DNA from: an uncultured Chloroflexia bacterium
GTDB taxonomy: Bacteria > Chloroflexota > Anaerolineae > Anaerolineales > UBA11579
Length of the DNA stretch: 64,000 nucleotides
Reading direction: 5' to 3'
NCBI GenBank assembly: GCA_963722735.1
Contig: CAVROH010000013.1
Location: 2,942 to 66,941 of the forward strand
Below the pieces are notes generated by a model, which did not search any database, was not told the DNA's origin, and saw nothing but the letters and a program-made list of their open reading frames with translations. Made by a program: the position numbers and the translations under genes. This document shows, piece by piece, positions 19,317-58,692 of this stretch (positions within the stretch are counted from its first letter, which is position 1; every line of letters starts with the position of its first letter).

Positions 19317-21496
19317 ATGGCTGATACTGAAAAAGACCTCCCCGAATTTACCGAACCCTCTGTTTTGGATTATGTGCGTGCCCGGCTGATGCCCTGGCGC
19401 GGGCCTGCTCCTGAGATCCCGGAAGCGCCGACTGAAGGTGTCTACTGGCTGGCGGAAACTGACCTGGGCGGAGGCATGGACTTGCCCCGCGAGCGGGTCG
19501 CCGACCGGCTGCCGGCGAAATCTCTGGGGGCGCTGGCTTTGGCCCTTTTGGGGCAGTTTTTCCTGATGCCGCCGCTGCGCCAGCCGCTGGTGGGGAGCTT
19601 CTTCTTCATTTTGGCGGTGGGCGTGCTGATCTGGGCAGTCAACAGCGGGGAATTGACGCTGGCCGCGCCGCAGCCATCCGAGGAGAGCACCGACCGGTTT
19701 GAGGTGCGGGTGCGCCCGCTGATCGCCGGGATTATCGTGCTATTTCTGGCCTTCTGGGCTTTCTCCAAAAATCCGCAGAGTGGCGAATTCCTCTACACCG
19801 GGTTGAATCTTATGCTGTGGTTCACGGGGATCGGGCTGGTGCTGTGGGCGTTGTGGATGCCCGTTCCCGATTGGGCCGGGCTGTGGGAGAAGGCCAAAGG
19901 CTTTTTCAGGCGCGAGAACTGGGAGATCAAGATCACACCGCATGCGCTGCTGGTGGTGCTGGTCTTCCTGGTGGCGGTGTTCTTCCGCACATACTCGGGT
20001 GGGAGATGTGGTGCCGGAGATGTTCAGCGACCATGCCGAAAAGCTGCTGGATGTCTATGATGTGCTCCAGGGACATTCCAAGATCTTCTTTGAGCGCAAT
20101 ACCGGGCGCGAGGGATTGCAGTTCCATCTGATCGCCTGGACGGTCAAGCTGTTTGGCACCGGGATCTCGTTTTTGAGCATGAAGATCGGGACGATCTTCT
20201 TCGGTATCTTCATGCTGCCGTATATTTATCTGCTGGGCAAGGAACTGGCGAATAAGAATGTTGGCCTGATGGCGATGTTGTTGACCGGGGTGTCCTACTG
20301 GCCGAACGTCCTCGCCCGGGTGGCGCTGCGTTTCATTCTCTACCCGGCCTTTGCCGCCCCCACGTTGTATTACCTGGTGCGCGGGCTGCGCACCGGCAAA
20401 CGCCATTATTTCATCCTCAGCGGCATCTTCCTGGGGATTGGTCTGCATGGGTACAGTCCTTTCCGGGCAGTGCCGGTGCTGGTGGTGATTGTGATGCTGT
20501 TGTATTGGCTGGAACGGCGTGAGAGCAACCGCTTCGACCGGGCATTTGTCTGGCTGGGGATCGTGGCGTTCGTCTCATTGGTCATCTTCCTGCCCCTGCT
20601 GCGGGTATGGACCCAGGATCCCGAGATTATTCAATTACCGGATGGCCTCCCGCCTGACGGCTTTGGAAGCCGGTGATCAGATGGCCCAGGGCTGGGCTTT
20701 GGTGGGCGTGTTCATTAAGAATGTGTGGGATGGGCTTGCTGATGTTCAACTGGAACAGCGGTGAGATCTGGGTGAATACGATTGTGAATACTCCCAGCCT
20801 GGAACTGGTTTCCGGGGCGGCGTTGATCATCGGCGCGGTGCTGGTGATCGGCCGGTATGCGCGGGACGCCAGTGGGAAGACGGCCTGCTGCTGTGGGGGA
20901 TCCCGATCCTGATGCTGCCCTCGACGCTTTCGCTGGCTTTCCCGCATGAGAACCCGGCCCCCAACCGGGCCGGTGGAGCGATGATCATGGTCTTTATCCT
21001 GGCGGCAATGGGGATCGAGGCGGTGCTGCGGGCGGTGCGCCAGCGGACTGGCGGGGTATTAGGCCTCCGGCTGGCAGTCGTGCTGGGGATTGGCTTGATG
21101 TTGATCTCCGTGGGGCAGAATTACCATCTGACCTTCACGACCTTCCCAGAGAATTACATCCCGAATTCCCGCGATACCTCCGAGATGGGCGCCGTGATCG
21201 CCCAGTTCACTGATACAGTTGGGTCTCCGGACCAGGCCTGGGTGGTGGCGTACCCGCATTGGGTCGATACCCGCCTGGTGGGGATCAATGCCGGCTTCCC
21301 GATCAAGGATTTCGCCATCTGGGAGGAAGATCTGGATGAGACCTTGCTGGTCAGCTCCCCCAAGTTGTTCCTGCTGAAGCTGGATGATAAGTACCGGGCT
21401 GGACGAGGCTGCAGGAGCTTGTATCCCGAAGGCAAGTTCTCGGTTTATCCGACCGAATACCCGGTGCATAGTTTCATTATTTATTCTGTCCCATAA
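19317..21496 (+). CDS. GT-C fold glycosyltransferase (PMT/GT39/ArnT-like; frameshifted)
   Basis: Polytopic; MFSDHAEK, FFERNTGRE, LGIGLHGYSPFR and a C-terminal soluble domain. Confidence 0.75.
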
Positions 21497-21511
21497 GTTG
21501 AGCCGATACGT

Positions 21512-24500
21512 ATGAGCGATCAAGAATCAATGCAGAAGCCGGAGACTGAATCCGGCACAATAAAGATGAAGAAACCGGCCCGCAACGACTGGATTTTTGA
21601 TGCGGTGATGATCCTGCTGCTGATCGCCGGGGCGGTGCTGCGTCTCTCGGGGATCGAGTGGGCGGCCGACCAATATCTGCACCCGGATGAACGCCATCTG
21701 GTAAATGTGGAGACCGCCCTCTCCACGGTGCAGACCTTCGGCCAGTATTGGGATACGGCCAATTCCACCCTCAACCCGCATAACGTGGGCTATAACTTCT
21801 TCGTGTACGGCACTCTGCCGATCTTCCTGGTGCGTTATGTCGGCTGAATGGCTGGGCCAGATCGGCTATTCGGAGATCATGATCATCGGGCGGCAGCTTT
21901 CGGCGATCGCCGACCTGTTCGTGGTGCTGCTGGTCTATCTGACCGCCTCACACGCCTTTGACCGCCGGGTCGGACTGGCAGCGGGGGCCTTCAGCGCCTT
22001 CACCGTGTTGGAGATCCAGATCTCGCATTTCTTTGCCGTCGATACCTATCTGACGTTGTTCAGTATGCTGGCGGTGTATATTGCCGTGCGGCTGGCGACT
22101 GAGGAGAATCCGGAGGAAGGGCCGGTGTTCAAGCCCTGGCTGTTCGTGTTCTTCGGCATCGCCCTGGGGATGGCGGTGGCTTCAAAACTGAATACCGTCC
22201 CGGTGGCGATGGTGCTGCCGCTGGCGGTGTGGGTGCGCATCTCACGCCTGCCGCGGGAGGAGCGTCTTGATGCCGCCTGGCATGCCTCCGGATATCTGAT
22301 CCTGGCGGCGGTGGTCAGCCTGGTCACCTTCCGTATTTTCCAGCCGTATGCCTTCAGCGGGCCGGGCTTCCTGGGTGTGCTGCCCAATCCGAAGTGGATC
22401 GATGATATTTCTGAGCTGATGCGCCAGACCAGCGGCGATTTTGACTGGCCGCCCTCGATCCAATGGGCGCGCCGGCCGGTATGGTTCTCCTTGCAGAATA
22501 TGGTGCTGTGGGGGATGGGCATTCCGATGTCGGTGATGGCCTGGGGCGGGTTCCTGGTCTCGGGCTGGCAGATGTTGAAGGGCAAGTGGCGCACCTTCGT
22601 GGTGATGTGGGTCTGGACGGCGTTTTATTTCGGCTGGCAGTCCATGGCCTTTAATCCGACGATGCGCTACCAGATTCTGGTCTACCCGATGCTGGCGATC
22701 TTTGCCGGCTGGGCGGTGGTGAGCCTGTGCGACTGGGCCGGCGCAGCGGCCAGGGGACAGCGTGCAGCCCAGATCGGGGCGGCGGTGTTGGGCGCAGGCT
22801 CGATTTTGCTGACTGCCTGGTGGGCGGTGGCCTTTGCCGGGATCTATACCCGCCCGATCACCCGGGTGGAGGCATCCGAGTGGATCTTCCACAATGTGCC
22901 CGGCCCGTTGAACTTGCAGATCCAGACTGGTGAGGAATCCTATTCCCAGCCGCTGCCGCTGCCGTATGGGCAGACGGTCAGTGACCAGATCGCCGTATTC
23001 CACCAGCTTTATCCCCAACCAGGCCGGCTTGCTGACCGAGGTGGCCTTCAAGGATGTGCTCACCGGGGGCGGTGACTCAGCTGGTGACCGTCTCGGTGGC
23101 GGAAATGGGTGGGTTGGACCTGCCGGTGTATGTAGACAGCGGCGAGGCGTATTTCGGTCCCGATGGCGCGCCGCTGCAGCTTACCCTCACGGATGAAGAC
23201 CACGCCGTCCTGCCCGGCAGCCGGACTTATATCCTCGAAGTGGGGCTGTTTTCCGGGGATACCCCGCTGCTGCTTGAGAACGGCTATCTCCGGTTGCAAA
23301 GCGTTTCGGGAGCGATCAGTCTGCCGATCACGGTGGAACCGGTGATCCTGGAGGCCGACGGCAGCGTATTCAGCTATTCATTCACCACTGTGGAGACTGT
23401 CTCACTGGTGGATGTAACCCTCTTCCTCGGCCAGGTCGACGTGGACCGGCTGGATGAGCAGACCTTCCGAATCCTGCTGGATACCGATCCGCGAATTCAG
23501 CAACCCGGTGGTCTCCGAGCCGGTCACGGTCACCGGGTTGGCGGACGGGGTCAGCCGGGAGGGCGGGGTTTTTGATCTGGATCAGCCAGTGCTGATGGAA
23601 TCGGCGAGTATCTATCATCTGCGGATCGAGAATCTGACCGAGGGCGGTGACGGCAACCTTCCAGGGCGCTTCACTGGCAAATGAGGGTGCCTGGGATGAC
23701 GGCTTGCCGATGCGGATCGAGAGGCTATAATGCTTATGGCGGGATCTATCCGCCCGACCTGGGCTTCGATATGTACAACGATGCCAACCCGGAAAAGCTG
23801 GACCGCTTCCTCGATTTGCTGGAGACCTCCGAGTACCTGACGATCTCTTCCAGCCGGCAGTGGGCCAGCACGACTCGCATCCCGGAACGCTACCCGTTGA
23901 ATGTGATCTATTACCGCAACCTGCTGGGCTGCCCGGAAGAGCGCACAATCGAGTGGTGCTACAACGTGGCTGAACCGGGGATGTTTGAGAGCAATCTGGG
24001 CTTCGATCTGATCAAGACATTCCAGTCAGACCCGGAATTTGCCGGTCGTGCGGATCAATGACCAGTTTGCCGAGGAAGCCTTCACCGTTTACGATCATCC
24101 CAAGGTGTTCATCTTCGAAAAGCAGGCGGGTTACAACCATGCCGCCGTGGTGGAGATATTTAGCCGAGGCAGATTTTGACAATGTGATCCGGCTGACGCC
24201 CAAGCAGGCCAGCGAATTCAAATCGCTGCTGCTGTCCGATGCCGCGCATCGCCCGCCAGCGGGAGGCCGGCACCTGGTCTGAACTGTTCGATTCGGATGC
24301 CTGGTACAACCGCTCCGGTTTGGGGGCGGTGGCGGTCTGGTATCTGGCGCTGACCGTGCTGGGGTGGGCGGTCTTCCCACTGGTGCGCAAAGCGCTGCCC
24401 GGACTGCCGGATCAGCGGCTATCCCGCTGGTGCGGACTGCCGGGATGCTGCTGCTGGCCTATCTGAGCTGGCTGGCGGGGTCAGTGGGGTTGGGGTATAC

Positions 24501-26761
24501 CCGCCCGGTGATCGCTGGGCGTCTATCTGCTGCTGGTGGCGGTGGGAATCTGGCAGGCGATCCGGCAGCGGGATGAGCTGAGTACCGCTGCTGCGGGAAC
24601 ACTGGCGCGATTTCCTCCGGGCGGAACTGGTCTTCCTGGCGGCCTTCGTGCTGGTGCTGCTGGTGCGCTACGGCAACCCTGATCTGTGGCACCCGTATAA
24701 GGGCGGCGAGAAGCCGATGGACTTCGCTTATTTCAATGCCATTCTGAAAACGGTTTCCTTCCCGGCTTATGATCCCTGGTATGCGGGCGGCTACATCAAC
24801 TACTATTATTTCGGGTTTGTGTTCGTCGGTACGCTGGTGAAAATGTTGGGGATCGTCCCGGCGCTGGCCTATAACCTCATTCTGCCGACTTTGTTTGCGA
24901 TGATCTTCTGCCGGGGCGTATTCTGCGGCTGGGTAATCTTTTCCGCAAATGGCAGGAAGACCGGGGCGGAGATGCAGGCGAAGCTAAAGCTGCCCGGCCT
25001 GGCTGGTAGGGATCGCTGGGGCGCTGGTCACCGCATTCCTCGGCAACCTGGGCACCGTCCGGTTGTTCATGGAGGGCTTCCAGCGGCTGGCGGCTCAGGG
25101 TGATTTCAGCCGGGAAGCGGCCTTCTTCACCAAATTGGGCTGGACCTTCAGCAGGTTTTGGTCAAGTATTCAAGGGATCGGTCTGCCCTATGCCACGGGA
25201 GAATTTTACTGGCAGCCAAGCCGGGTGATCCCGGCGATCAACGAGCCGGAACCGATCACCGAGTTCCCCTGGTTCACCACGATCTACGCCGATCTGCATG
25301 CCCATTTCATGTCGCTGGCGCTGGTCTTTTTGGCGGTGGCCTGGGTGCTGGCGGTGGTTTTCTCCAAAGCATGGCAGGGGCAGAAGCCGCTGGCAGGTGG
25401 CGTGGAGCTTTGTATTTGCCGGGGTGGCGATTGGTGCATTGCGCCCGACCAATACCTGGGACCTGCCGACCTACCTGGCGCTGGGTGTGGTGGCGGTGAT
25501 TTATGCCGCTTTCCGCTATGGGGGGGAGAATCCGCCAGGTAAGCCTGAAGCTCCGGTCAATGGAAACTGGATCCAGGCTGTGGGTGGGGCGCTGGCCCTG
25601 ATTGCGCTGACCTTCATACTCTACCAGCCGTTTGCCCAGTGGTACGGCATGCCTTACTCTAAAATCATGGATCTGGCGCGGCACGCATACCCCGGTCAGT
25701 TCATATTTCTGTGCATTGGGGGCTGTTCCTCTTCATCCTGGTGTTCTGGATGGGTTGGGAGACGCGCCAGTGGATGGCGACAACCCCGCTTTCCGCTTTG
25801 CGCAAACTGGAACCGTACCGTAGCTGGATCTGGGTCGGGGTTGGGCGGTCTTGCTGGTGATGGCTGTCATGGCGCTGGCGCTCAAGGTGCGCATTCAGTT
25901 GATCGCCTTGCCGCTGGCAGTCTGGGCGGCGATGCTGCTCTTCCGCCCGGGGACCAGCGACAGCAAGCGGATCGTGCTGTTCATCACCGGCACGGCCTTC
26001 TTCCTGACGATGCTGGTGGAAGTGATCGTGCTTTCCGGCGATATTGGCCGGATGAACACGGTATTCAAATTCTATTTGCAGGCCTGGGTGCTGTTTGGGG
26101 CCAGCAGTGCGGCCGCCTTTGGCTGGACGCTGATGGAACTGCGCCGCTGGCGGGAAGGCTGGCAGGTCGTCTGGCGGATCGGGCTGGCGGCGCTGGCATT
26201 GGGGGCTTTCATGTTCCCGCTGACAGCGACCACGGCCAAGATCCAGGACCGGATGTCTGCTGACAGCGCCGCATACCCTGGACGGGATGGCCTTCATGCA
26301 GACCTCTGAGTACCCGGATGAGGGCGGGGTGGTGCAGCTGGATGCGGAATATGAAGCCATCCGCTGGGTGCAGGAGAATATCTCCGGCACGCCGGTGATC
26401 GTGGAGGCGAATACGCCGCTGTACCGCTGGGGGAGCCGCTTCAGCATCTACACCGGGCTGCCGACCGTGCTGGGGTGGGACTGGCATCAAACCCAGCAGC
26501 GCGGCCACTCACCAGGTCAGCGATATCTCCGGCCGGCAGCAGGATATCAGCATGTTTTACCTGATGGATGACCGTATGATCGCCGAGAACTTCCTGCGTG
26601 AGTACGAAGTGGAGTATGTGATCCTCGGACAGCTGGAGCGCAATTATTATCCCGGCGCGGGGCTGGACAAGTTCGAGCGCTGGGAGGGCGACCTGTGGGA
26701 AGAGGTCTACCGCAATGAGCAAACCGTGATCTATCGGGTGATTGGAGGATGCCCTGTATGA
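21512..26761 (+). CDS. Very large membrane protein: N-terminal GT39-like domain plus DUF2298 (Chlor_Arch_YYY) domain (many frameshifts)
   Basis: HPDER, FVYGTLP, SHFFAVD; later GGEKPMDFAYFNA..DPWYAGGYINYYYFG, ADLHAH and RMNTVFKFY. Confidence 0.75.
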
Positions 26762-26783
26762 TGGGGCGGGAGAGTAGGCGGAG

Positions 26784-29282
26784 ATGGTCTGGTTAGCGCC
26801 GGTATTGTGGGTTTTGCTGGTCAGTGCGGTGGGGTGGGGCGTGTTCCCGCTGGCTTACCGCTTCTTTCCCGGGCTGTCAGACCGGGGCTATGCGGTCAGC
26901 CGAGCGCTGGGCCTGCTGCTGTGGGGGTATCTCTTCTGGCTGCTGAGTTCGCTGGGCGTGCTGGTGAATACCACCGGCGGGATCCTGACGGCGCTGCTAC
27001 TGGTGCTGGGGGTCAGCTATTTCTTCTGGCGGAAAATTGATAGAGACGAGTTCAAAGCCTGGCTGAGGGAGAAGCGTAAGACCCTGATTATCGCAGTAGA
27101 GATCGTCTTCCTGGTCAGCTTTGTCTTCCTGCTGATCTTCCGGGGGATGGACCCGGCGATTTTAGGCACCGAGAAGCCGATGGAACTGGCCTTCATCAAT
27201 GCGATCCTGCGCTCCCAGCAGATGCCGCCGCTGGACCCATGGCTGGCGGACTATTCGATCTCGTATTATTACTTCGGTTACGTGATGGTGGCGATGCTGG
27301 CGAAGATCACCGCGGTCAGTGGGGGTGTGGCCTTCAATCTGGGGCTTTCGCTGGTGTTTGCGATGGGCGCGGCCGGGGCGTATGGGATTATCCATAACCT
27401 GCTGGCGGCACTGCCCGAGGAACGGCGGCCAAATCTGACCAGGCTGCCGGTGCTGGGGCCATTGTTTGTGCTGATCCTGAGCAATGTGGAGGGCTTTCTG
27501 GAGTTCATCCACGGGCGGGGGGCTTTCTGGCAGCAGGCTGCAGACGGCACCTGGACTTCCACATTCTGGACGTGGGTCAACCTGGATAATCTCAAGCTGC
27601 CGCCGCCGGACAATACTGCTCCGGGACAACTGCGCCACTGGTGGTGGTGGCGGGCCTCCCGCGTGGTGGCCGATTTCGACCTGTTCGGCAACTTCCGCGA
27701 GGTGATCGACGAGTTCCCCTTCTTTTCCTTCCTGCTGGCCGATCTGCATCCGCATGTGCTGGTGATCCCCTTCGTGATGCTGGCGCTGGCCTTCAGCCTG
27801 AATATGTTCCTGCAGCCGGCGGAGGAATTCGAGCGCCGTTTCCGCCTGTTCCGGTTCGATTATGATTTCTCCCCGCAGACCTTTTTCCTGGGGGTGGTGA
27901 TCTTTGGTGGGCTGGGCTTCCTGAATATCTGGGACTTCCCCTGGTACGTGGTGGTCTTCGCCGGGGCGCATTTGCTGCGCAAGGCAGAACGGCGCGGCTG
28001 GCATGGCGACCGGCTTTTGGAGTTCGTGGTGCTCGTGCTGGCATTCGGCGTCTTTGGGATCGTGGCGTACCTGCCGTTCTACATCAGCTTCTCCTCACAG
28101 GCCGGTGGGATCCTGCCGAATGTGATCAACCCGACGCGGGGCATTCACCAGTGGATCATGTTTGGGACGCTGTTCCTGCCGCTGTTCTCCTTCCTGATCT
28201 ACCTGGCTGCCCGGCGCAAGAAGACTGGGTATACGCTACGCGGCCTGGGTCTGGCATTGTTTGGGATTGTGCTGCTGTTTGGTGCTCTCGCTGGGGATGA
28301 CCAGTTCTGATGGGGGCGCAGACCGAGGTGGCTGGCGGCGTAGAGGTACATCCATTCTTGCAGCTGTACGGTGCTGAGTCAGCGGGGCAGTTGATCCGTG
28401 AAGGTCTTTCCCGGCGGGGGACGGCGATCTTCAGTGCGCTGACCCTGACCGCCTTGCTGGGACTGGCATTTGGTGCGGTCTGGCCGAGGCGGGATGTAGA
28501 GGGTGAGGAAGAGCCAGAGGAAAAACTGCCAGCTCCGCACCAGTTTGCGGTGGTGATGATCATCGTCGCCGGGCTGCTGGTGGTGGTGCCGGAGTTCTTT
28601 TACCTGCGGGATCTGTTTGGCAGCCGGATGAACACGATCTTCAAGTTTTATTACCAGGGCTGGATCATGTGGGCGCTGGCTGGCGCGTATGGCAGCGCCG
28701 TGCTGTTCAGCGCGCCGAAGAAGCAGCTTGCCGGCAAGATCTACCCGGTGGTATTTGTGATCGCGCATGCTGGTGGGGCTGACCTACCCGGCGATGGGGC
28801 TGCATACGCGCATCTCTCATTTTGCCGCCCAGCCGGAGCCGGCGCTGGAGCTGGACGGCACGGCGAATAATTTTTATCTCAGCGAGGAGGAGCATGCCGC
28901 CGTGGATTGGCTGATGGATGCGCCGACCGGCACGCTGGTGGAGGCGGTGCATCCCTATGGGGGCAGCTATACCCATTACGCCCGTATCTCGATGAATTCC
29001 GGCCAGCCGGCTTTGCTGGGATGGGTCGGGCATGAGGGCCAGTGGCGCGGCGGCAACGAGGAGATGGGGTCCCGCCAGTCGGATATTGAGCGGCTTTACC
29101 AGACGCCTTCCTGGCAGGAGACCTCGGGAGATCATTGACCAGTACCAGATCGTGTACATTGTGCTGGGCAATCTGGAGCGGACGACCTATCGGTCTACGA
29201 GGAGAAGTTTATCCAGAATCTGACACCGGTCTTCCAGCAGGGCGGGGTCACGATCTACCATACGGGTTTGATCGGTGAGTAA
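26784..29282 (+). CDS. DUF2298 (Chlor_Arch_YYY) membrane protein
   Basis: GTEKPMELAFINA..DPWLADYSISYYYFG, EFPFFSFLLADLHPH, RMNTIFKFYYQ and GWVGHEGQWR. Confidence 0.85.
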
Positions 29283-31683: not shown

Positions 31684-32379
31684 GTGAAGATCGCGCGCAT
31701 AAATACAATTGCCCTGGATGGCCCGGCGGCCTCTGGAAAATCCACTGTAGGAGAGCTGGTTGCCAAAGAGCTGGGCTTCCTGTTCTTTGATACCGGGGTG
31801 ATGTACCGGGCGATCACCCTGGCGGCGCTTGAGGCGGGCGTATCTGTATTTGATGAAGCGGGTTGTACCCAATTGGCAAAGGAAACCCAGATCGACGTGC
31901 AGCCCGGCTTCTATGGATGACGGCCGCAAAAATGATATTTTGATCAATGGGGTGGACAAGACCTGGGGCATCCGCACACCGGAAGTGGATGCGAATGTCT
32001 CTGAGGTCTCCACTTATGCGGGCGTGCGCACTGCTCTGACCGCCCAGCAGCGCAAGATCGGTGTGCGCGGGCGGGTGGTCATGGTGGGGCGCGATATCGG
32101 CACGGTGGTGATGCCGGATGCTGCCCTGAAGATCTATCTGGATGCTTCTGCCGAGGAACGTGCCCGCCGCCGGCATGCGGAACGGTGGCCCGCGGTGAAG
32201 AATCGGATTATGAGGAAGTGCTGGCGATCGTGAAGAAACGCGATCAGATCGACTCAAGCCGGGAAGTGGCTCCGCTGTGTGCCGCCGAGGATGCCGTGGT
32301 GATCGATTCGGATCACTTGAGCATTGAAGAAGTATTCGCGCCATGATGGCGTTGATCAGAGGAAGCTGGAATTGGATGA
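31684..32379 (+). CDS. cmk: Cytidylate kinase
   Basis: [29 protein letters not shown] and [12 protein letters not shown]. Confidence 0.93.
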
Positions 32380-36659: not shown

Positions 36660-36911
36660 TCTTAGTCTGGGCAAACTAAAAGCCATTAAATTAAGCAAGC
36701 GAGCGATTGAGAAACAATTCTCAATCCGCTTGCTTCGTTTTGCATGTTTTTGTAGCACATTTGTTCAATGATTGCGTGCCCTAAATTTTTAGGATAAACT
36801 GGATCAGGATTAATATGGAACGGTTGATTATCGAGATTACGGGGATAGCAACAAACAACCAAACAGTTTTCCGGACCTCAGATTTTGCTGTACTCAGGAG
36901 GCATAATTAGT

Positions 36912-41241
<4,330 letters not shown>

Positions 41242-41495: not shown

Positions 41496-41515
41496 TATAA
41501 TATGGAGTTTGTTTG

Positions 41516-44207
41516 ATGGAAATTGGTTTGGTTCGAAAGATCAATATTGATGAGGAGATGCAGCAGGCGTACCTGGATTATGCGATGAGCACGATCGTCT
41601 CGCGTGCCCTGCCGGATGCGCGTGACGGCCTCAAGCCGGTGCACCGCCGAATCCTCTATGCAATGTATGATATGGGCCTGCGCCCGAATACGAGTTACAA
41701 GAAATCGGCCCGCGTGGTGGGTGAGGTGCTGGGTAAGTACCATCCCCACAGTGACGCGGCGGTGTATGATGCCATGGCCCGTATGGCGCAGGACTTTTCT
41801 CTGCGCTACCCGCTGGTGGATGGACAGGGGAACTTCGGCAGCGTGGACGGCGACCCGCCGGCGGCGATGCGCTACACCGAGGCCAAGATGGCCGCCGCCG
41901 CCATGGATATCATGGTCGATATCCAGAAGGATACCGTCGATTTTACCGAGAATTTTGATGCTTCGCTGACAGAACCGAGCGTGCTGCCGGCCACGATCCC
42001 GAACTTACTGGTCAATGGGGCTGTGGGTATTGCGGTGGGGATGTCCACCAGCGTGCCGCCGCACAACCTTGGCGAGGTGGCCGATGCGGTGGTCTATATC
42101 CTGGAGAACTGGAGCAAGGTGGACAAGATCGATGTGGATACGCTGATGCAGTTCATCAAGGGGCCGGATTTTCCCACCGGGGGCGTGATCCTCGGCGGGT
42201 TGAAGGAAGAGGGCGGCCTGGCGAAGGCTTACGGCTCCGGACGGGGACGGATCACAGTGCAGGCGCGGGCGCATGTCGAAGATATGACCCGCGGCCGCCA
42301 GCGGATCATCATCACCGAGCTGCCTTACATGACCAACAAGACCACGCTGATCGAGCGGATCGCCAAACTGGCCCGCGACGGCGTGCTGGAGGGGCTTTCC
42401 GATCTGCGTGATGAAAGCGACCGCCAGGGGATGCGGATCGTGATCGAGCTGACCAAGAACGCCAATACTGACAAGGTGCTGGAGCAGCTCTATAAGCGCA
42501 CCCAGATGCAGACCACCTTCAGCATCATTCTGCTGGCATTGGTGGATGGCGAGCCAAAGATGCTCAGCCTGAAGAATGCCCTGATGGTGTATATCAACCA
42601 CCGGCTGGAGATCATCAGGCGGCGCAGTGAGTATGACCTGGCGCGTGCCCGAAAGCGGCTGCATATCCTTGAAGGGCTGCGGATTGCCCTCGACAATCTG
42701 GATGAGGTCATTGAACTGATCCGGCGCTCACGGTCTGCGGAGACCGCCCATGCCAATCTGAGGAAGACCTACAAGCTCAGCGATGAGCAGGCTACCGCGA
42801 TCCTGGATATGCCTCTGCGGCGGCTGGCCGCCCTGGAGCGCAAGAAGATCGAGGACGAATATAAAGAGGTGCGCCGGCTGATCCAGGATCTGGAGGGCTT
42901 GCTGAAATCCCCCAAGAAGATGCGCAGCGTGGTGGCGGAAGAACTGCTGGAAGTAAAAGAGAAATACGGCGACCGCCGCCGCACCCAGATCATCGAGGTG
43001 GCGGAAGGCGCTAAGATCAAGGATCTGCTGACCGCCAGCGACCTGGTGGAGGAATATACCACCTATGTCAACCTGGACAGCGAGGGACGCATTTCCCGCA
43101 CCCCGGAGGGCAAGGATGCCCGCCTGTGGGGCAGCACGGCTGCCGACCTGGTGCTGGAAGGCAATACCCGCGATACGCTGTATGTCGTCTCGGCCAGCGG
43201 GGAGACCGCCGCGGTGGCGATGCACGCCATCCCTGAAGCTGAACTGGCCGATCAGGGTGTGAGTGTGGCTTCGGTCACCCCGTTTACTGACAAGGTCAAC
43301 GTGAAAGCGATCTTCAGCCTGCCGCCGGAAGCCTTGCAGAATGAAGACTGGTATGTGATGACGGTCTCGAAATATGGGATGGTGAAGAAGAGCGCCCTCA
43401 GCGAGCTGCCCGGCCCGGCTGCCGAGACCTTTGAACTGGCCCGCACCAAACCCGGTGACGAGATCGGCTGGGTGCTGATCACCAATGGGGAGAACGAGGT
43501 TATGCTGGCGACGGCCAATGGGATGGTGATCCGCTTCAGTGAGGACGCCGTGCGCCCGATGGGGCTGATCGCTGCCGGCGTGAACGGGATCAAGCTGAAG
43601 GGCGAGGACGAAGTCATCGGCGCGGCGGTCTTCAATCCGCAGTATGACGTCTTCCTGCTGACCAGCGAGGGGATCGCCAAACGGGTCAAGGCGGACCAGT
43701 TCCCGGTGCAGGGACGTTACGGCCAGGGTGTGATCGGCTGGAAGCTGGATGGGGATGCCCAACTGGTCGGCCTGGCGCAGAACAAGCCGAACTTCGAGGT
43801 CGGGATTCATCTGGCCCGGCTGGCGGCCAAGCGCGTCCGGCTGGATGATGCCAAGCTGCGCGGACGTCCGTCGCAGCGGCAACTCGGTGATCGATAAGTT
43901 GAAGGAAAAGGTCACCCTCGTGACCGTGCCGTGGGAGACGCCGGACGGCCTGCCGGGACCGGAGAAGAAACGCAAAGCGCCAGAAACGCCTACTCTGCCA
44001 GAGCCGCCGAAGGAAAAAGCCAGGCCTAAGGCCAGGAAGAAATCAACGCCGGTAGAGCAGATCAGCATGGATCTGGACACCCCCGCGGCCAAGACGCGGG
44101 CGCGCAAAACCAGCACCCGCAAGGCGAGCACGCGTAAGACGACGACGCGCAAGACCACGACGAAGAAAACCCCGGCGAAGAAGACCAGCACCCGGAAAAA
44201 GAAGTAA
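41516..44207 (+). CDS. gyrA: Type IIA topoisomerase subunit A (GyrA/ParC family; no GyrA-box, so ParC-like) with Lys/Arg/Thr-rich tail
   Basis: [22 protein letters not shown], catalytic [15 protein letters not shown] and beta-pinwheel repeats. Confidence 0.93.
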
Positions 44208-44239
44208 ATGGCGAATAGGGATTTCCGAAGGAGAAAATC

Positions 44240-44901
44240 ATGGGAGTGATCTCAGAACTGTATGGGGATATTCGTTTCATCCTCAAGTATCGCGGCAAGG
44301 TAATGAAAAAGCAGTTGGCGCTGAACAAAGCTGCGCCCAAGGCTGGTGATCTGGCCCCGGATTTTACCCTGTATGATATTTCGGGGACAGCATCGGTGAC
44401 CTTATCCGAATTCCGCGGTAAAAAGCCGGTTGCACTGGTATTCGGGAGTTTTACCTGACCGCCGTATGTCCGGGGTACCGTGAGTATCCAGAAACTTTAT
44501 CAAGAATATCATCAGGAAGTGCAATTCCTGAGCATTTATATCCGTGAAGCCCATCCGATCGACGGCTGGTGGCTGGGACGGCGGCTGACGAAGAAGGTGA
44601 TGTATAAGATGGCCCCGAAGGTCTCGGATGGCGCATTATGATCCGAAAACCATCGAGGAGCGCCGGGCTGTCGCCGGGGAATGTGAAACCGCCCTCCAGT
44701 ATGGGATTAGGACCTATGTGGACGAGATGGACGACTTTGTAAACGATTCTTACGCCGCCTGGCCGACGCGTTTATATCTTATCGGCCTGGATGGCAAAGT
44801 GGAATATGCGGGCGGGCTGGGCCCGTATCGATTTCAAGCCGGCGAAACTGAAAGCAGCGATCGACCGGTATCTGGCTGGATTGAACCAAGAATTGAATTA
44901 G
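44240..44901 (+). CDS. Iodothyronine-deiodinase-like thioredoxin-fold selenoprotein (UGA 44456-44458 = Sec)
   Basis: APDFTL..KPVALVFGSFT-UGA-PPY..FLSIYIREAHPIDGW..VDEMDD..YAAWPTRLYLIG..GKVEYAGGLGP matches DIO motifs; the frame is continuous across the UGA. Confidence 0.88.
44473..44489 (+). promoter_or_regulatory. Candidate bacterial SECIS hairpin
   Basis: GGGUAC-CGUGA-GUAUCC; the loop starts 20 nt after the UGA with G at loop position 2. Confidence 0.6.
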
Positions 44902-45067
44902 ATCCTGAATCTATTCAGCAAACGAAAATCCTGTTCTGCATTGAAAGATGGCCAGAACGGGATTTTCTTATTCTCCAAGCATCACAATTATCATATTTTG
45001 TCTGATTTCTATGGTTCTGCCCCGAGAGTATAATCATTGAAAATAAATCAGCAATGGGATAGGGATC

Positions 45068-56155: not shown

Positions 56156-58692
56156 ATGAACGATCAAGACTGGTATTCTCAAATTGAAGGCGCTCTGAAC
56201 ACCGAGGAACTGCACCAACGGGCCGAACAACTTGAGAATATCCCCAATATTCAGACCGGATGAAGAAGGGATCATCTTTTGTCCGATCCTGCCGCTGCGC
56301 GAGGTGATCGTCTTCCCGCATATGGTGGTGCCGCTGCCCGTTGGGCGTTCTGGCACAATGGAGGCGATCGAGGCTGCCAACCAGCAGGATCAGGTGATGA
56401 TCGCCATCCCCCAGCGCAACCCGCGCAAACATTCAGTCCAGAAGAAGGATTTTTTGCCGGTTGGCGTGCTCTCGGCGGTAAGTGATATGTTCTCCACCGG
56501 GCAGAGTGATAATCTGGTGATCGTTCAGGGGCGCTTCAGGGTGGAATTGATCGAGATCGTGCGCGACCATGCTGTGCTGTATGCCAAAGCGCGGGTGGTG
56601 GAAGAGCGCATGCGCCCTTCCCAGCAGGATACTGCCCTGATGCGCAATCTGATGCGTTTGTTCAAGCGCTATGCCGAACTGACCCGCTCGATCCCGGATG
56701 AGGCGCTGGATTATTTGATCGAGATTGACGAGCCCGGCTGGCTGGCGGATATGCTGACCAACTCGTTCTCTGTGCATCTGGATGACCGGCATGAACTGCT
56801 GCTGAGCCTGGACCCGACCGATCGGCTGGAGAAGGTCAATAACCTGCTGATCCGGGAATTGGGCGTGCTGGAACTTGAAGATGAACTGCATGCCAAAGTG
56901 CAGGATGAGGTGGAACGCGGCCAGCGGGAGAATTATCTGCGCGAGCAGATGCGCGTGATCCAGCGCGAGTTGGGTGAGCAGGACCCGTGGAGCAAAGAAC
57001 TCCAGGAGCTGCATAATCACGATCAAAGAGGCCGAACTGCCCGAAGCAGGCAGAAGAAGCCGCCATGAAGGAATTTGAACGCCTGTATCAGATGCCGCCG
57101 ATGTCGCCGGAAGTGGGCGTGATCCGCACCTATATTGACTGGATCCTCGAACTGCCGTGGACGAATATGACCGAAGACAACCTGGATGTAACCCATGCTA
57201 TTGAGGTGCTGGAAGAGAACCATTACGGCCTGGAAAAGCCCAAGGACCGCATCCTGGAATCGATTGCCATCCGCAGCCTGAAACCGGGTAAGACCCGGCA
57301 GCCGATCCTGTGCTTTATCGGCCCGCCCGGGACCGGGAAAGACCACCCTGGGCAAGTCGATCGCTGAGGCGATGGGGCGCAAATTTGTGCGCATCTCGCT
57401 GGGCGGGGTGCGGGATGAGGCCGAAATGCGCGGCCACCGGCGCACCTATATCGGGGCGCTGCCGGGACGGATCATCCAGACGATGAAACGCGCCGAGACG
57501 CTGAACCCGGTCTTTATCCTGGATGAGGTCGATAAGCTGGGCGTGGGTTACCGTGGCGATCCGGCGGCGGCGCTGCTGGAAGTGCTGGACCCGGAGCAGA
57601 ACCAGGAATTCTCCGACCATTATCTGGAGATTGCCTACGATCTTTCCAAGGTGCTGTTCATCACCACAGCCAACGACCGCAGCGATATCCCCTGGGCGCT
57701 GCTGGACCGGATGGAAGTGGTCGAGTTCCCCGGCTATATTGAGGAAGAAAAGGTCGAGATCGCCAAGAAGTTCCTCATCTCCCGCCAGCTGGAAGAATCC
57801 GGGCTGGAGGAGGGTGAGCTGAGCTTCACCGAGAAGGCCATCCGCCGGATCATCAATGAATATACCTATGAGGCCGGGGTACGCAACCTGGAGCGCGAGA
57901 TCGGACGGGTGTGCCGCAAGGTGGCCCGCCTGAAAGCAGAAAAGAAGGCCTTCCCGGCCAGGATCGGGGACACTGTGCTTGAGAAGTATCTTGGCCCGCC
58001 GGAATATTCGGCCACGGATGTGGAGACCGAGGACCAGGTGGGTGTGGCCACCAGTATTGCCTGGACGATGGCAGGCGGCGATATTATGCCGATTGAAGTC
58101 GCTCTGACCGAAGGTAAGGGAAATTTGCAGATCACCGGCCAGATCGGCGAGGTGATGCAGGAATCGGCTCAGGCGGCTATGACCTACCTGAAATCCCGGG
58201 CGAAGAGATTTGGGATTAAAGAGTGATGTATTTGAGGGTGTGGATGTGCACATCCATGTACCGGAGGGCGCGATCCCCAAGGATGGCCCCAGTGCGGGAA
58301 TCACCCTGGCAACAGCAATGATCTCGGCATTTACCGGGCGCAAGGTGCGCAAGGATGTCTGCATGACCGGTGAGGTCACCCTGCGGGGGCGGGTGCTGCC
58401 GATCGGCGGGGTGCGCAATAAGGTGTTGGCGGCGCACCGCAATGGCCTGAAGATGGTGCTGCTCCCAAGCCGCAATGAGAAAGACCTGATGGATGTGCCC
58501 AAGAAGGTGAAATCCGACCTGAAGCTGATATTTGTCAAACAGATGGACGATGTGCTGGATGCGGCTTTGCTGCCCGCTGAGGAGAAACCCAAGAAAGACA
58601 AAAAGGCTTCCAAAAAGGACCAGCCTGCGGCGGTGAAATCAGCCAAGCAGGTCTCGGATGAGACCCAGCCGCCGGCCTCGGCTGGGGTCTAG
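56156..58692 (+). CDS. lon: ATP-dependent protease La
   Basis: [30 protein letters not shown] and catalytic PKDGPSAG...GGVRNK. Confidence 0.96.

Follow-up and report, generated by a model that had tools for sequence, protein, structure and literature searches.

A probable deiodinase-family selenoprotein gene with an in-frame UGA and a conserved bacterial SECIS hairpin in an Anaerolineales contig

We analysed a stretch of 64,000 nucleotides from an uncultured Chloroflexia bacterium (contig CAVROH010000013.1, assembly GCA_963722735.1), called the window below. On its forward strand, the locus 44240-44901 is probably the gene for a soluble selenoprotein of an Anaerolineales bacterium. The protein would have a thioredoxin fold of the deiodinase family and about 220 residues. 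Its in-frame UGA would be decoded as selenocysteine (Sec), and the two frameshifts found downstream would be artefacts. The evidence is good both for the family and for decoding as Sec.

The encoded protein belongs to the deiodinase family

The open reading frame (ORF) opened by ATG 44240 ends at TGA 44456-44458 after 72 amino acids (44240..44458), as a sequence-only reading of this DNA had noted. With TGA translated as U, the ATG frame reads ...KPVALVFGSFT-U-PPYVRGTVSIQKLYQEYHQEVQFLSIYIREAHPIDGWWLGRRLTKKVMYKMAPKV... (in a shorter excerpt, ...VALVFGSFT-U-PPYVRGTVSIQKLYQEYHQEVQFLSIYIREAHPIDGWW...). It contains FGSFT-U-PPY at residues 68-76, an instance of the deiodinase active-site motif FGSxT-[U/C]-PP[FY], followed by the loop edge YIREAHPIDGWW. 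The same reading had compared these segments with the vertebrate active site. They do pair with FGSCTCPPF and YIEEAHPSDGW of mouse Dio3 (4TR3).

The first coding segment of the gene (44240-44625) matches Pfam PF00837 T4_deiodinase with 66.5 bits (E 2.8e-18), above the gathering cutoff of 27. The second segment alone reaches 23.9 bits at profile positions 181-227, below that cutoff. Redoxin (37.5 bits) and AhpC-TSA (27.4 bits) match the same N-terminal stretch more weakly. In NCBIfam, the best match is NF038285 'deiodinase family protein'. The window piece scores 102 bits and the intact protein of L005, our nearest genomic relative (78% nucleotide identity), scores 177.5, both under the cutoff of 250. 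Only positions 169-340 of this 347-amino-acid model are matched. They cover its deiodinase-like half, and the N-terminal portion of about 170 residues is absent. In the wider family, many proteins of about 350-420 amino acids carry an extra N-terminal half like that of NF038285. Others hold two to four deiodinase-like stretches, and there are fusions of up to 913 amino acids (P0121, P0122, P0127 and others).

Relatives were collected by a scan of species-representative genomes. The 402 candidates gave 389 related stretches, and the best 80 (L001-L080) were used. Counts of in-frame TGA refer to 79 genes, with L032 left out, and residue conservation refers to 76 clade members. Against solved structures, the profile of the relatives finds mouse Dio3 (4TR3, E 3.2e-23) and Dio2 (9H48, E 6.4e-15) ahead of generic thioredoxin-family proteins. 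The intact L005 protein alone gives the same ranking. Alignment with 4TR3 pairs FGSFT-U-PPY with FGSCTCPPF, YIREAHPIDGW with YIEEAHPSDGW, and WPTRLY with YFERLY.

Structural work on Dio2 and Dio3 describes a catalytic Sec, a Ser/Thr/Tyr/Glu/His relay, a stacking Trp and a substrate-clamp Arg; the second relay His is His182 in Dio2 (PMC11592359). In the clade, the edge of the Dio insertion and the residues Y100, E103, H105 and W110 are present in all 76 members. T72 is likewise found in 76/76 and S70 in 75/76, and the window has all of them. The equivalent of the clamp Arg (Dio3 Arg275) is R177 in WPTRLY, again in 76/76. One other cysteine is conserved, Cys148 in AGECE (74/76). The second relay His, which we take to be His219 in Dio3, is less general. 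A pairwise alignment sets His132 of L005 opposite the His of 4TR3 PQH, and the profile alignment places this residue differently. Only 14 of the 76 members have His132; the window is one of them (MAHYDP).

Compared with vertebrate Dio1-3 (4TR3 and 4TR4 for Dio3, 9H48 for Dio2), the bacterial proteins share the thioredoxin-fold catalytic domain with FGSxT-U/C-PP[FY]. They also share the Y-I-x-E-A-H-P-x-D-G-W edge of the Dio-specific insertion, the Arg in ..RLY.. and a GG.GP near the C-terminus. However, they have no N-terminal membrane anchor. In the window, the N-terminus MGVISELYGDIRFILKYRGKVMKKQLALNKAAPK shows neither a hydrophobic span nor an anchor when the sequence is judged by eye. Phe or Tyr stands where Dio has a Cys two residues before Sec, and the bacterial version of the Dio-specific insertion has 10-13 more residues. 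At the place of the distal Cys of Dio3 (Cys239) there is no Cys; the conserved Cys148 comes about 8 residues closer to the N-terminus. The selenocysteine insertion sequence (SECIS) lies within the coding region here and not in the 3' untranslated region. Thyroid hormones are no expected substrate of the bacterial protein.

Deiodinases have been described as peroxiredoxin-like (PMC11592359). As in peroxiredoxin, AhpC-TSA and Redoxin proteins, the nucleophilic Cys or Sec follows a T-x motif and opens helix 1. Nevertheless, the match to the deiodinase model is far stronger, and the protein has the Dio-specific insertion.

The gene is an Anaerolineales member of a selenoprotein family described in 2005. 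These are the bacterial deiodinase-like (DIO-like) selenoproteins of the Sargasso Sea (Zhang, Fomenko and Gladyshev 2005, PMC1088965). That analysis notes Cys homologues and SECIS elements of the bacterial kind, and it considers a redox function probable, one that has nothing to do with thyroid hormones (PMC1088965). For the DIO-like family, 22 Sec and 21 Cys sequences have been listed (PMC2398784). Later surveys, in their passages on the family, list it without a function (PMC2398784, PMC9312934, PMC13188914). The sequence-only reading had called the family known from metagenomes and functionally uncharacterised, in agreement with what these passages say (PMC1088965, PMC13188914). Our clade resembles the 2005 family in its Pfam domain (PF00837), in the in-frame UGA paired with Cys homologues, and in having no assigned function. 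It also carries, immediately 3' of the UGA, a SECIS of bacterial type whose small apical loop contains a G. In contrast, the published examples are marine metagenome reads, and the clade here is mainly Anaerolineales/Chloroflexota. Two reviews give UxxC as the DIO-like motif (PMC9312934, PMC13188914). Compared with the motif as these reviews state it, and not with their representative sequences, our clade has U-P-P-Y/F and no Cys at +3.

The UGA is conserved and pairs with cysteine

TGA occupies the Sec column in all 80 related loci (79 by pattern, L032 by eye). Each of the 79 genes analysed has exactly one in-frame TGA, and 76 of them read as 200-224 amino acids. The remaining ones are L024 and L040, with longer N-terminal calls, and L079, which halts early at a second TGA. 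The wider family comprises 12049 representatives at E <= 0.001 and 357 at E <= 1e-30. In the best 150 of them (aligned with hmmalign), the Sec column holds Cys in 139; Trp and Ser occur three times each, Leu and Ala once each, and three sequences are truncated at the N-terminus. By this comparison, the column is a classical Sec/Cys pair. Whether homologues carry Cys or UGA here had been suggested as a check, and both are found, UGA in the near relatives and Cys in the distant ones. The proposal of a deiodinase-family gene with a Sec-type UGA is borne out by the PF00837 score, the 4TR3 match and the TGA in every related locus.

The Thr codon just 5' of the UGA (44453-44455) is ACC in 85% of the relatives. 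Its entropy is 0.74 bits, while other four-fold codons show about 1.8. Recoding may call for a particular 5' context of the Sec codon.

A conserved hairpin follows the UGA

A hairpin stands at 44473-44489, as the sequence-only reading had described it. The stem of 6 bp pairs GGGUAC (44473-44478) with GUAUCC (44484-44489), around the loop CGUGA (44479-44483). The loop begins after 20 nt from the UGA, with G at its second position. A bacterial SECIS model allows a loop of 3-9 nt, a stem of 4-16 bp, a G in the first two loop positions and a spacing of 16-37 nt (PMC13188914). With a loop of 5 nt, a stem of 6 bp, G then U at loop positions 2-3 and a spacing of 20 nt, the hairpin falls within this geometry. 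The model is the bSECISearch consensus. On energy the hairpin is borderline: values of -5.0 to -7.1 kcal/mol, which are our own calculation and not the score of bSECISearch, do not clearly reach the model's minimum free energy (MFE) of <= -7.5 kcal/mol.

Several observations on the single sequence weigh against a SECIS. The hairpin is weak: on its own it has -5.0 kcal/mol, and a 50-nt fold constrained to contain it has -7.1, compared with an MFE of -7.5. It is absent from the MFE structure of the 60 nt at 44456-44515 (-8.5 kcal/mol, z = +0.68). A hairpin of the same geometry follows 414 of the 2325 TGA triplets in the window, and 239 of them at <= -5.0 kcal/mol (10-18%). Rfam gives no match at gathering thresholds over the window, and for 44400-44560 none even at E <= 10. 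The hairpin does appear when 27 nt are folded locally, with a z of only -0.86. The hairpin alone is not more than chance. Since the z-scores of the folds are weak, we dropped single-sequence folding as evidence.

The comparative analysis used an ungapped alignment of 63 nt from the UGA in the 80 sequences. RNAalifold independently predicts the same helix in these sequences (columns 19-23/29-33). Of the alignment cells in the stem, 90.8% pair, compared with 28.5-58.1% once the partner is slid. The forced fold has an energy of <= -7.5 kcal/mol in 58 of the 80 relatives. One pair changes from G-C to U-A in 7 sequences, the window included, and another from A-U to G-C in 1. The G-C to U-A switch couples a synonymous change in a Gly codon with a Leu-to-Ile change. 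That Ile is the only departure of the window from the clade consensus at highly conserved columns. The loop G (column 25) is invariant, and the whole loop CGUGA is kept in 52/80.

The codons under the hairpin are also constrained. Codons +6 to +10 are frozen as GGG (0.88), ACC (0.86), GUG (0.85), AGU (0.93) and CUC (0.93). Their synonymous entropy is 0.35-0.79 bits, compared with 1.4-2.5 at other four- and six-fold codons.

Two points temper this comparison. The compensatory changes are probably about two evolutionary events, as the 7 U-A sequences stand together at the base of the tree. The shuffle control for stem pairing, moreover, does not give a probability. Even so, a conserved TGA with a conserved hairpin across 80 loci is far beyond chance. 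Judged comparatively, the hairpin makes a convincing candidate for a genuine bacterial SECIS, because of the compensatory pairs, the invariant loop G and the constrained synonymous sites. The earlier assignment as a SECIS is therefore kept for its conservation, covariation and geometry. As a single sequence the hairpin is weak, and on energy the assignment is not clearly sustained.

Two insertions interrupt the frame

In the sequence as it stands, reading UGA as Sec does not suffice to give the gene a single open frame. The ATG frame is halted again by a second TGA at 44639-44641, and the translation past that point is nonsense. Pairwise blastn with the two nearest loci, L005 and L002, yields exactly two gaps, each of them a 1-nt insertion in the window. 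The first is an extra G at 44626-44627, where the window has GG and the relatives a single G. The second is an extra C at 44829.

The insertions divide the gene into three pieces on the forward strand. Segment 1, in the ATG frame (44240-44625), encodes residues 1-128 with the active-site motif and the loop edge. Segment 2, in frame +1 (44628-44828), encodes 67 residues (MAHYDPKTIEERRAVAGECETALQYGIRTYVDEMDD...GGLGPY), read as MAHYDPKTIEERRAVAGECETALQYGIRTYVDEMDD...WPTRLYLIGLDGKVEYAGGLGPY. Segment 3, in frame +2 (44830-44901), gives the last 23 residues, DFKPAKLKAAIDRYLAGLNQELN (44830-44898), then TAG at 44899-44901, and aligns with the C-terminus of the family. The three pieces tile the homologue alignment with neither overlap nor loss. 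Position 44901 is the true end of the gene, although the ATG frame itself does not reach that far. The sequence-only reading had given 44240..44901; its end coordinate was correct, and the second TGA and both frameshifts had passed unnoticed.

Signals stand on both sides of the gene. A Shine-Dalgarno-like AAGGAG, seen by sequence inspection, lies at 44228-44233, 6 nt 5' of the ATG. A hairpin like that of an intrinsic terminator, with a U-rich run, is at 44924-44973, 23 nt 3' of the TAG. The fold of 44902-44985 has -26.2 kcal/mol, and none of 200 shuffled sequences was as stable (z = -4.57). A consensus terminator scan missed this hairpin because of its composite loop.

We surveyed frame breaks with a Pfam scan of all 263 stop-to-stop ORFs of at least 100 amino acids in the window. 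The signature, consecutive parts of one Pfam model in adjacent ORFs of different frame, recurs window-wide. From the Pfam tables and the alignments with relatives, we counted at least 21 breaks in 12 genes. The rpoC gene is in six pieces, and the genes for a protein kinase and Lon are in three each. Those for a sulfatase, ETF-alpha, acyl-CoA dehydrogenase, cytidylate kinase and CotH are in two pieces each. Two DUF2298 genes are also broken, one into four pieces and the other into two. Examples are found at 350-1326, 24582-26306, 31802-32343, 36849-41044, 43875 and 56199-58689. As rpoC in six pieces is incompatible with a living cell, the breaks in the window are read as assembly indels. The window looks like an unpolished, indel-rich assembly, and readings based on its ORFs need care.

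The upstream neighbour is broken in the same manner. It is gyrA, for DNA gyrase subunit A (41513-44207, forward strand), identified by Pfam DNA_topoisoIV (529.8 bits) and NCBIfam NF004043 gyrA (911 bits, cutoff 902). Here it has 794 amino acids plus a tail in another frame. Its closest named relative, the Anaerolineales protein P0331, 92% identical, is intact with 902. In tblastn, residues 1-787 of P0331 fall on 41516-43876 and residues 787-867 on 43875-44126 in a second frame, so that the join is near 43875. The Lys/Thr/Arg-rich tail is in ORF 43749-44207.

Two side observations belong to these genes. The GyrA tail (43749-44204) is a long low-complexity segment rich in Lys, Thr, Arg and Pro, with a weak match to the Pfam HC2 histone-H1-like model (16.8 bits); P0331 has a tail of the same kind. 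The DUF2298 membrane-protein genes are in tandem at 24582-28867, 3' of PMT-type glycosyltransferase genes (19807-23072), and the first of them is the one in four pieces.

The two insertions in the deiodinase-like gene are probably sequencing or assembly errors, and the organism would then make one intact protein. We read them so because the conserved positions are kept, a ribosome-binding site and a terminator frame the gene, a database protein spans junction 1, and breaks occur window-wide. In the three pieces, the window keeps the clade consensus at 76 of the 77 columns conserved at 90% or more, and at 32/32 invariant columns. The database protein, P0015, is 94% identical and reads KVSMAHYDPKT across junction 1.

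Some findings oppose this reading. P0015, though it supports an intact junction 1, breaks off after GLDGKV and has unusual residues at some conserved sites. The gene is broken twice in 660 nt, more densely than the window as a whole with its lower-bound average of about 0.3 breaks per kb. Such a local density, with two frameshifts within 204 nt, would fit a real and recent pseudogene. In that case, two genuine 1-nt insertions would have inactivated the selenoprotein gene, and at most an N-terminal fragment would be made. The premature second TGA of the relative L079 and the Sec machinery not seen in the window point the same way. However, essential genes are broken alike, rpoC in its six pieces and gyrA next to an intact relative, and therefore the frame breaks here are no evidence of decay. 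The highly conserved and invariant columns are intact as well, and so are the Shine-Dalgarno-like site, the SECIS and the terminator. We consider a pseudogene unlikely.

Other readings of the UGA

Public databases hold this gene mostly in altered form. The closest full-length entries have W at the Sec column (FGSFTWPPY), as is the case for 7 of 21 sequences retrieved. Among 156 short homologues, 128 have their start exactly at the GUG inside the hairpin loop. In the window, the ORF list likewise has an ORF (44480..44641) that starts at this GUG (44480-44482). Both the 'W' entries and the truncated entries are gene-caller artefacts. The sequence-only reading had expected gene callers to split or miss the gene, and these entries agree with it.

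The same annotations could be taken literally. UGA 44456 would then be an ordinary stop between two small proteins, a 72-amino-acid N-terminal piece and a piece of about 135 amino acids from GUG 44480. Gene callers annotate the relatives so, with those 128 starts at the GUG, and database entries of 85 amino acids end at ...FGSYT. Nevertheless, the break would hit the catalytic residue of a single thioredoxin-fold domain, which is continuous in Dio3. Conservation spans the UGA in 80/80 loci, the Cys homologues are single proteins, and the supposed start GUG is the conserved hairpin loop. Two separate proteins are very improbable.

A UGA reassigned to Trp or Gly, as in genetic codes 4 and 25, or a TGC or TGT miscalled as TGA has a negligible probability. 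The W entries and the error-rich assembly would suit it, but TGA is the ordinary terminal stop of 4 of the 16 window ORFs with a Pfam match and of 34 of the 79 family genes and is therefore not reassigned in these organisms. A catalytic Cys/Sec position is also an implausible place for W, the window's errors are indels, and the same error in 80/80 independent genomes is impossible.

Selenocysteine machinery and lineage

GyrA places the window in Anaerolineales. Among the related loci, 68 of 80 are labelled Chloroflexota, and 36 of those Anaerolineales. Some bins (L060, L039, L070, L011, L014) are labelled Methanosarcinales, Rickettsiales, Actinomycetes or Desulforhopalus, and their genes nest among Chloroflexota. 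L060 adjoins L073 in the tree, with very short branches. These off-lineage labels could be binning contamination or recent transfer.

Against Sec decoding, no SelA, SelB or SelD domain was found in the 263 window ORFs of at least 100 amino acids (shorter fragments were not scanned). We found no tRNA-Sec in the 64 kb of the window, nor in the flanks of L001-L060 (L061-L080 were not scanned). The lack of Sec genes in 64 kb says little. For single-cell genomes of Anaerolineales, Sec-type formate dehydrogenases and a Sec elongation factor have been reported (PMC4959059). BSepDB includes Chloroflexota genomes with 46-49 selenoprotein genes (PMC13326102).

Gene neighbourhood and the RdhA-like cassette

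The gyrA ORF ends at TAA 44205-44207, 32 nt before the ATG of the selenoprotein gene. The spacing after a topoisomerase gene had been given correctly by the sequence-only reading, and that gene is gyrA. Co-transcription with gyrA is possible, as judged from the absence of any terminator-like site on the forward strand in the gap between the two genes. Among the 80 related loci, gyrA adjoins the gene in none. This adjacency is unique to the window and so implies no functional link. When the entire window was compared with the 80 loci by blastn, nothing but the gene itself matched. No neighbour family is common to more than 17 of the 79 loci, antisense shadow ORFs aside.

Eight loci are an exception. 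In them, one or two RdhA-like genes stand head-to-tail with the gene, closely packed and in the same orientation: L003 (6420-10669), L004 (140-1823), L006 (225-2630), L007 (8247-11705), L009 (9226-11631), L010 (9031-11647), L012 (7417-12216) and L016 (1875-4169). The gaps are 0-80 nt in seven of the eight. A TetR regulator is beside the cassette in six, and L012 has a glutaredoxin-fused flavoprotein disulfide reductase close by.

The RdhA-like Fe-S proteins have about 330-370 amino acids and are cytoplasmic, without a twin-arginine signal. Six of them were scanned with NCBIfam, and each matched the reductive-dehalogenase model TIGR02486 best, with 67-85 bits, under the cutoff of 160. Against the PDB, the L012 protein matches PceA (8Q4H, 4e-20) and then NpRdhA (4UQU, 1.4e-17), ahead of QueG. 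Because these neighbours are of the corrinoid type, the term 'B12-independent', used in the sequence-only reading, concerns the DIO-like protein itself only.

In the tree, all eight cassette loci belong to the starred set of 21 rows that holds the window, and seven to the set of 18 rows. In pairwise alignment, the His aligned with the second relay His of Dio3 is present in seven of the eight and also in the window. By tblastn, the window itself has no RdhA-like gene, and none lies within 10 kb in L005. A full-text literature search found no paper that links bacterial deiodinase-like selenoproteins with RdhA genes.

Proposed mechanism and function

Following the established bacterial mechanism, the SECIS hairpin inside the coding sequence would present its loop G(U) to SelB, the elongation factor specific for Sec. 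SelB would bring Sec-tRNA(Sec) to the ribosome ahead of release factor 2. In the protein, the selenolate of Sec73 would be supported by a deiodinase-type set of hydrogen bonds from Ser70, Thr72, Tyr100, Glu103 and His105, with His132 in this subgroup. It might attack an electrophile, either the halogen of a halogenated aromatic (formally X+) or a peroxide. The oxidised Se would be resolved by a thiol, most likely Cys148, and the enzyme may then be re-reduced through a thioredoxin- or glutaredoxin-type system. A point against this scheme is that we infer the role of Cys148, like the entire chemical mechanism.

In our estimate, a generic thiol or peroxide redox function would have close to an even chance. 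Reductive dehalogenation would be less likely, and something else altogether slightly less likely still.

Dehalogenation differs from these in the choice of substrate only, and the identity of the gene does not depend on it. It states that the subgroup is a Se-dependent reductive dehalogenase of halogenated aromatics, or a working partner there of cytoplasmic RdhA-like corrinoid enzymes. The packing of the gene against one or two RdhA-like genes in 8/80 loci suggests it, together with the TetR regulator in six of the eight. The cassette loci share the tree set of the window (all eight in the 21 rows, seven in the 18), and seven share with it the histidine that we take to be equivalent to Dio3 His219. 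The Dio-type residues are conserved, the Arg275 equivalent included. Deiodinases abstract the halogen as X+ by a selenolate (PMC11592359). Conversely, neither the window nor the 10 kb examined around the gene of L005 has an RdhA-like gene. Of the 79 clade members analysed, 71 lack such a neighbour, and no other neighbour is conserved. The adjacency may trace to two to four events only, and the RdhA-like proteins score below their family cutoff. We regard this dehalogenase or partner role as possible and on the unlikely side. The cassette raises, and does not establish, a role in organohalide chemistry. It is doubtful that the subgroup with the long N-terminus and the SM[ED]HYDP histidine is a Se-dependent dehalogenating enzyme that works with RdhA-like proteins in a TetR-controlled organohalide cassette of Anaerolineae.

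Significance

In public protein collections, this clade is represented almost exclusively by wrongly called fragments. Together with the W entered for Sec, this means that a family-aware re-annotation is needed. In error-rich long-read assemblies, a true recoding signal can stand beside sequencing frameshifts, and the comparison with relatives must separate them.

Cys148 is a testable candidate for the resolving thiol. The part worth following is the cassette in the relatives. The combination of TetR, RdhA-like and DIO-like genes in eight of them is the first concrete, testable lead towards organohalide chemistry for a family without a function. If the subgroup were a Se-dependent dehalogenase working with RdhA, the deiodinase-type abstraction of a halogen by a selenolate would have an ancient origin in bacteria, and vertebrates would have recruited it later for thyroid hormones.

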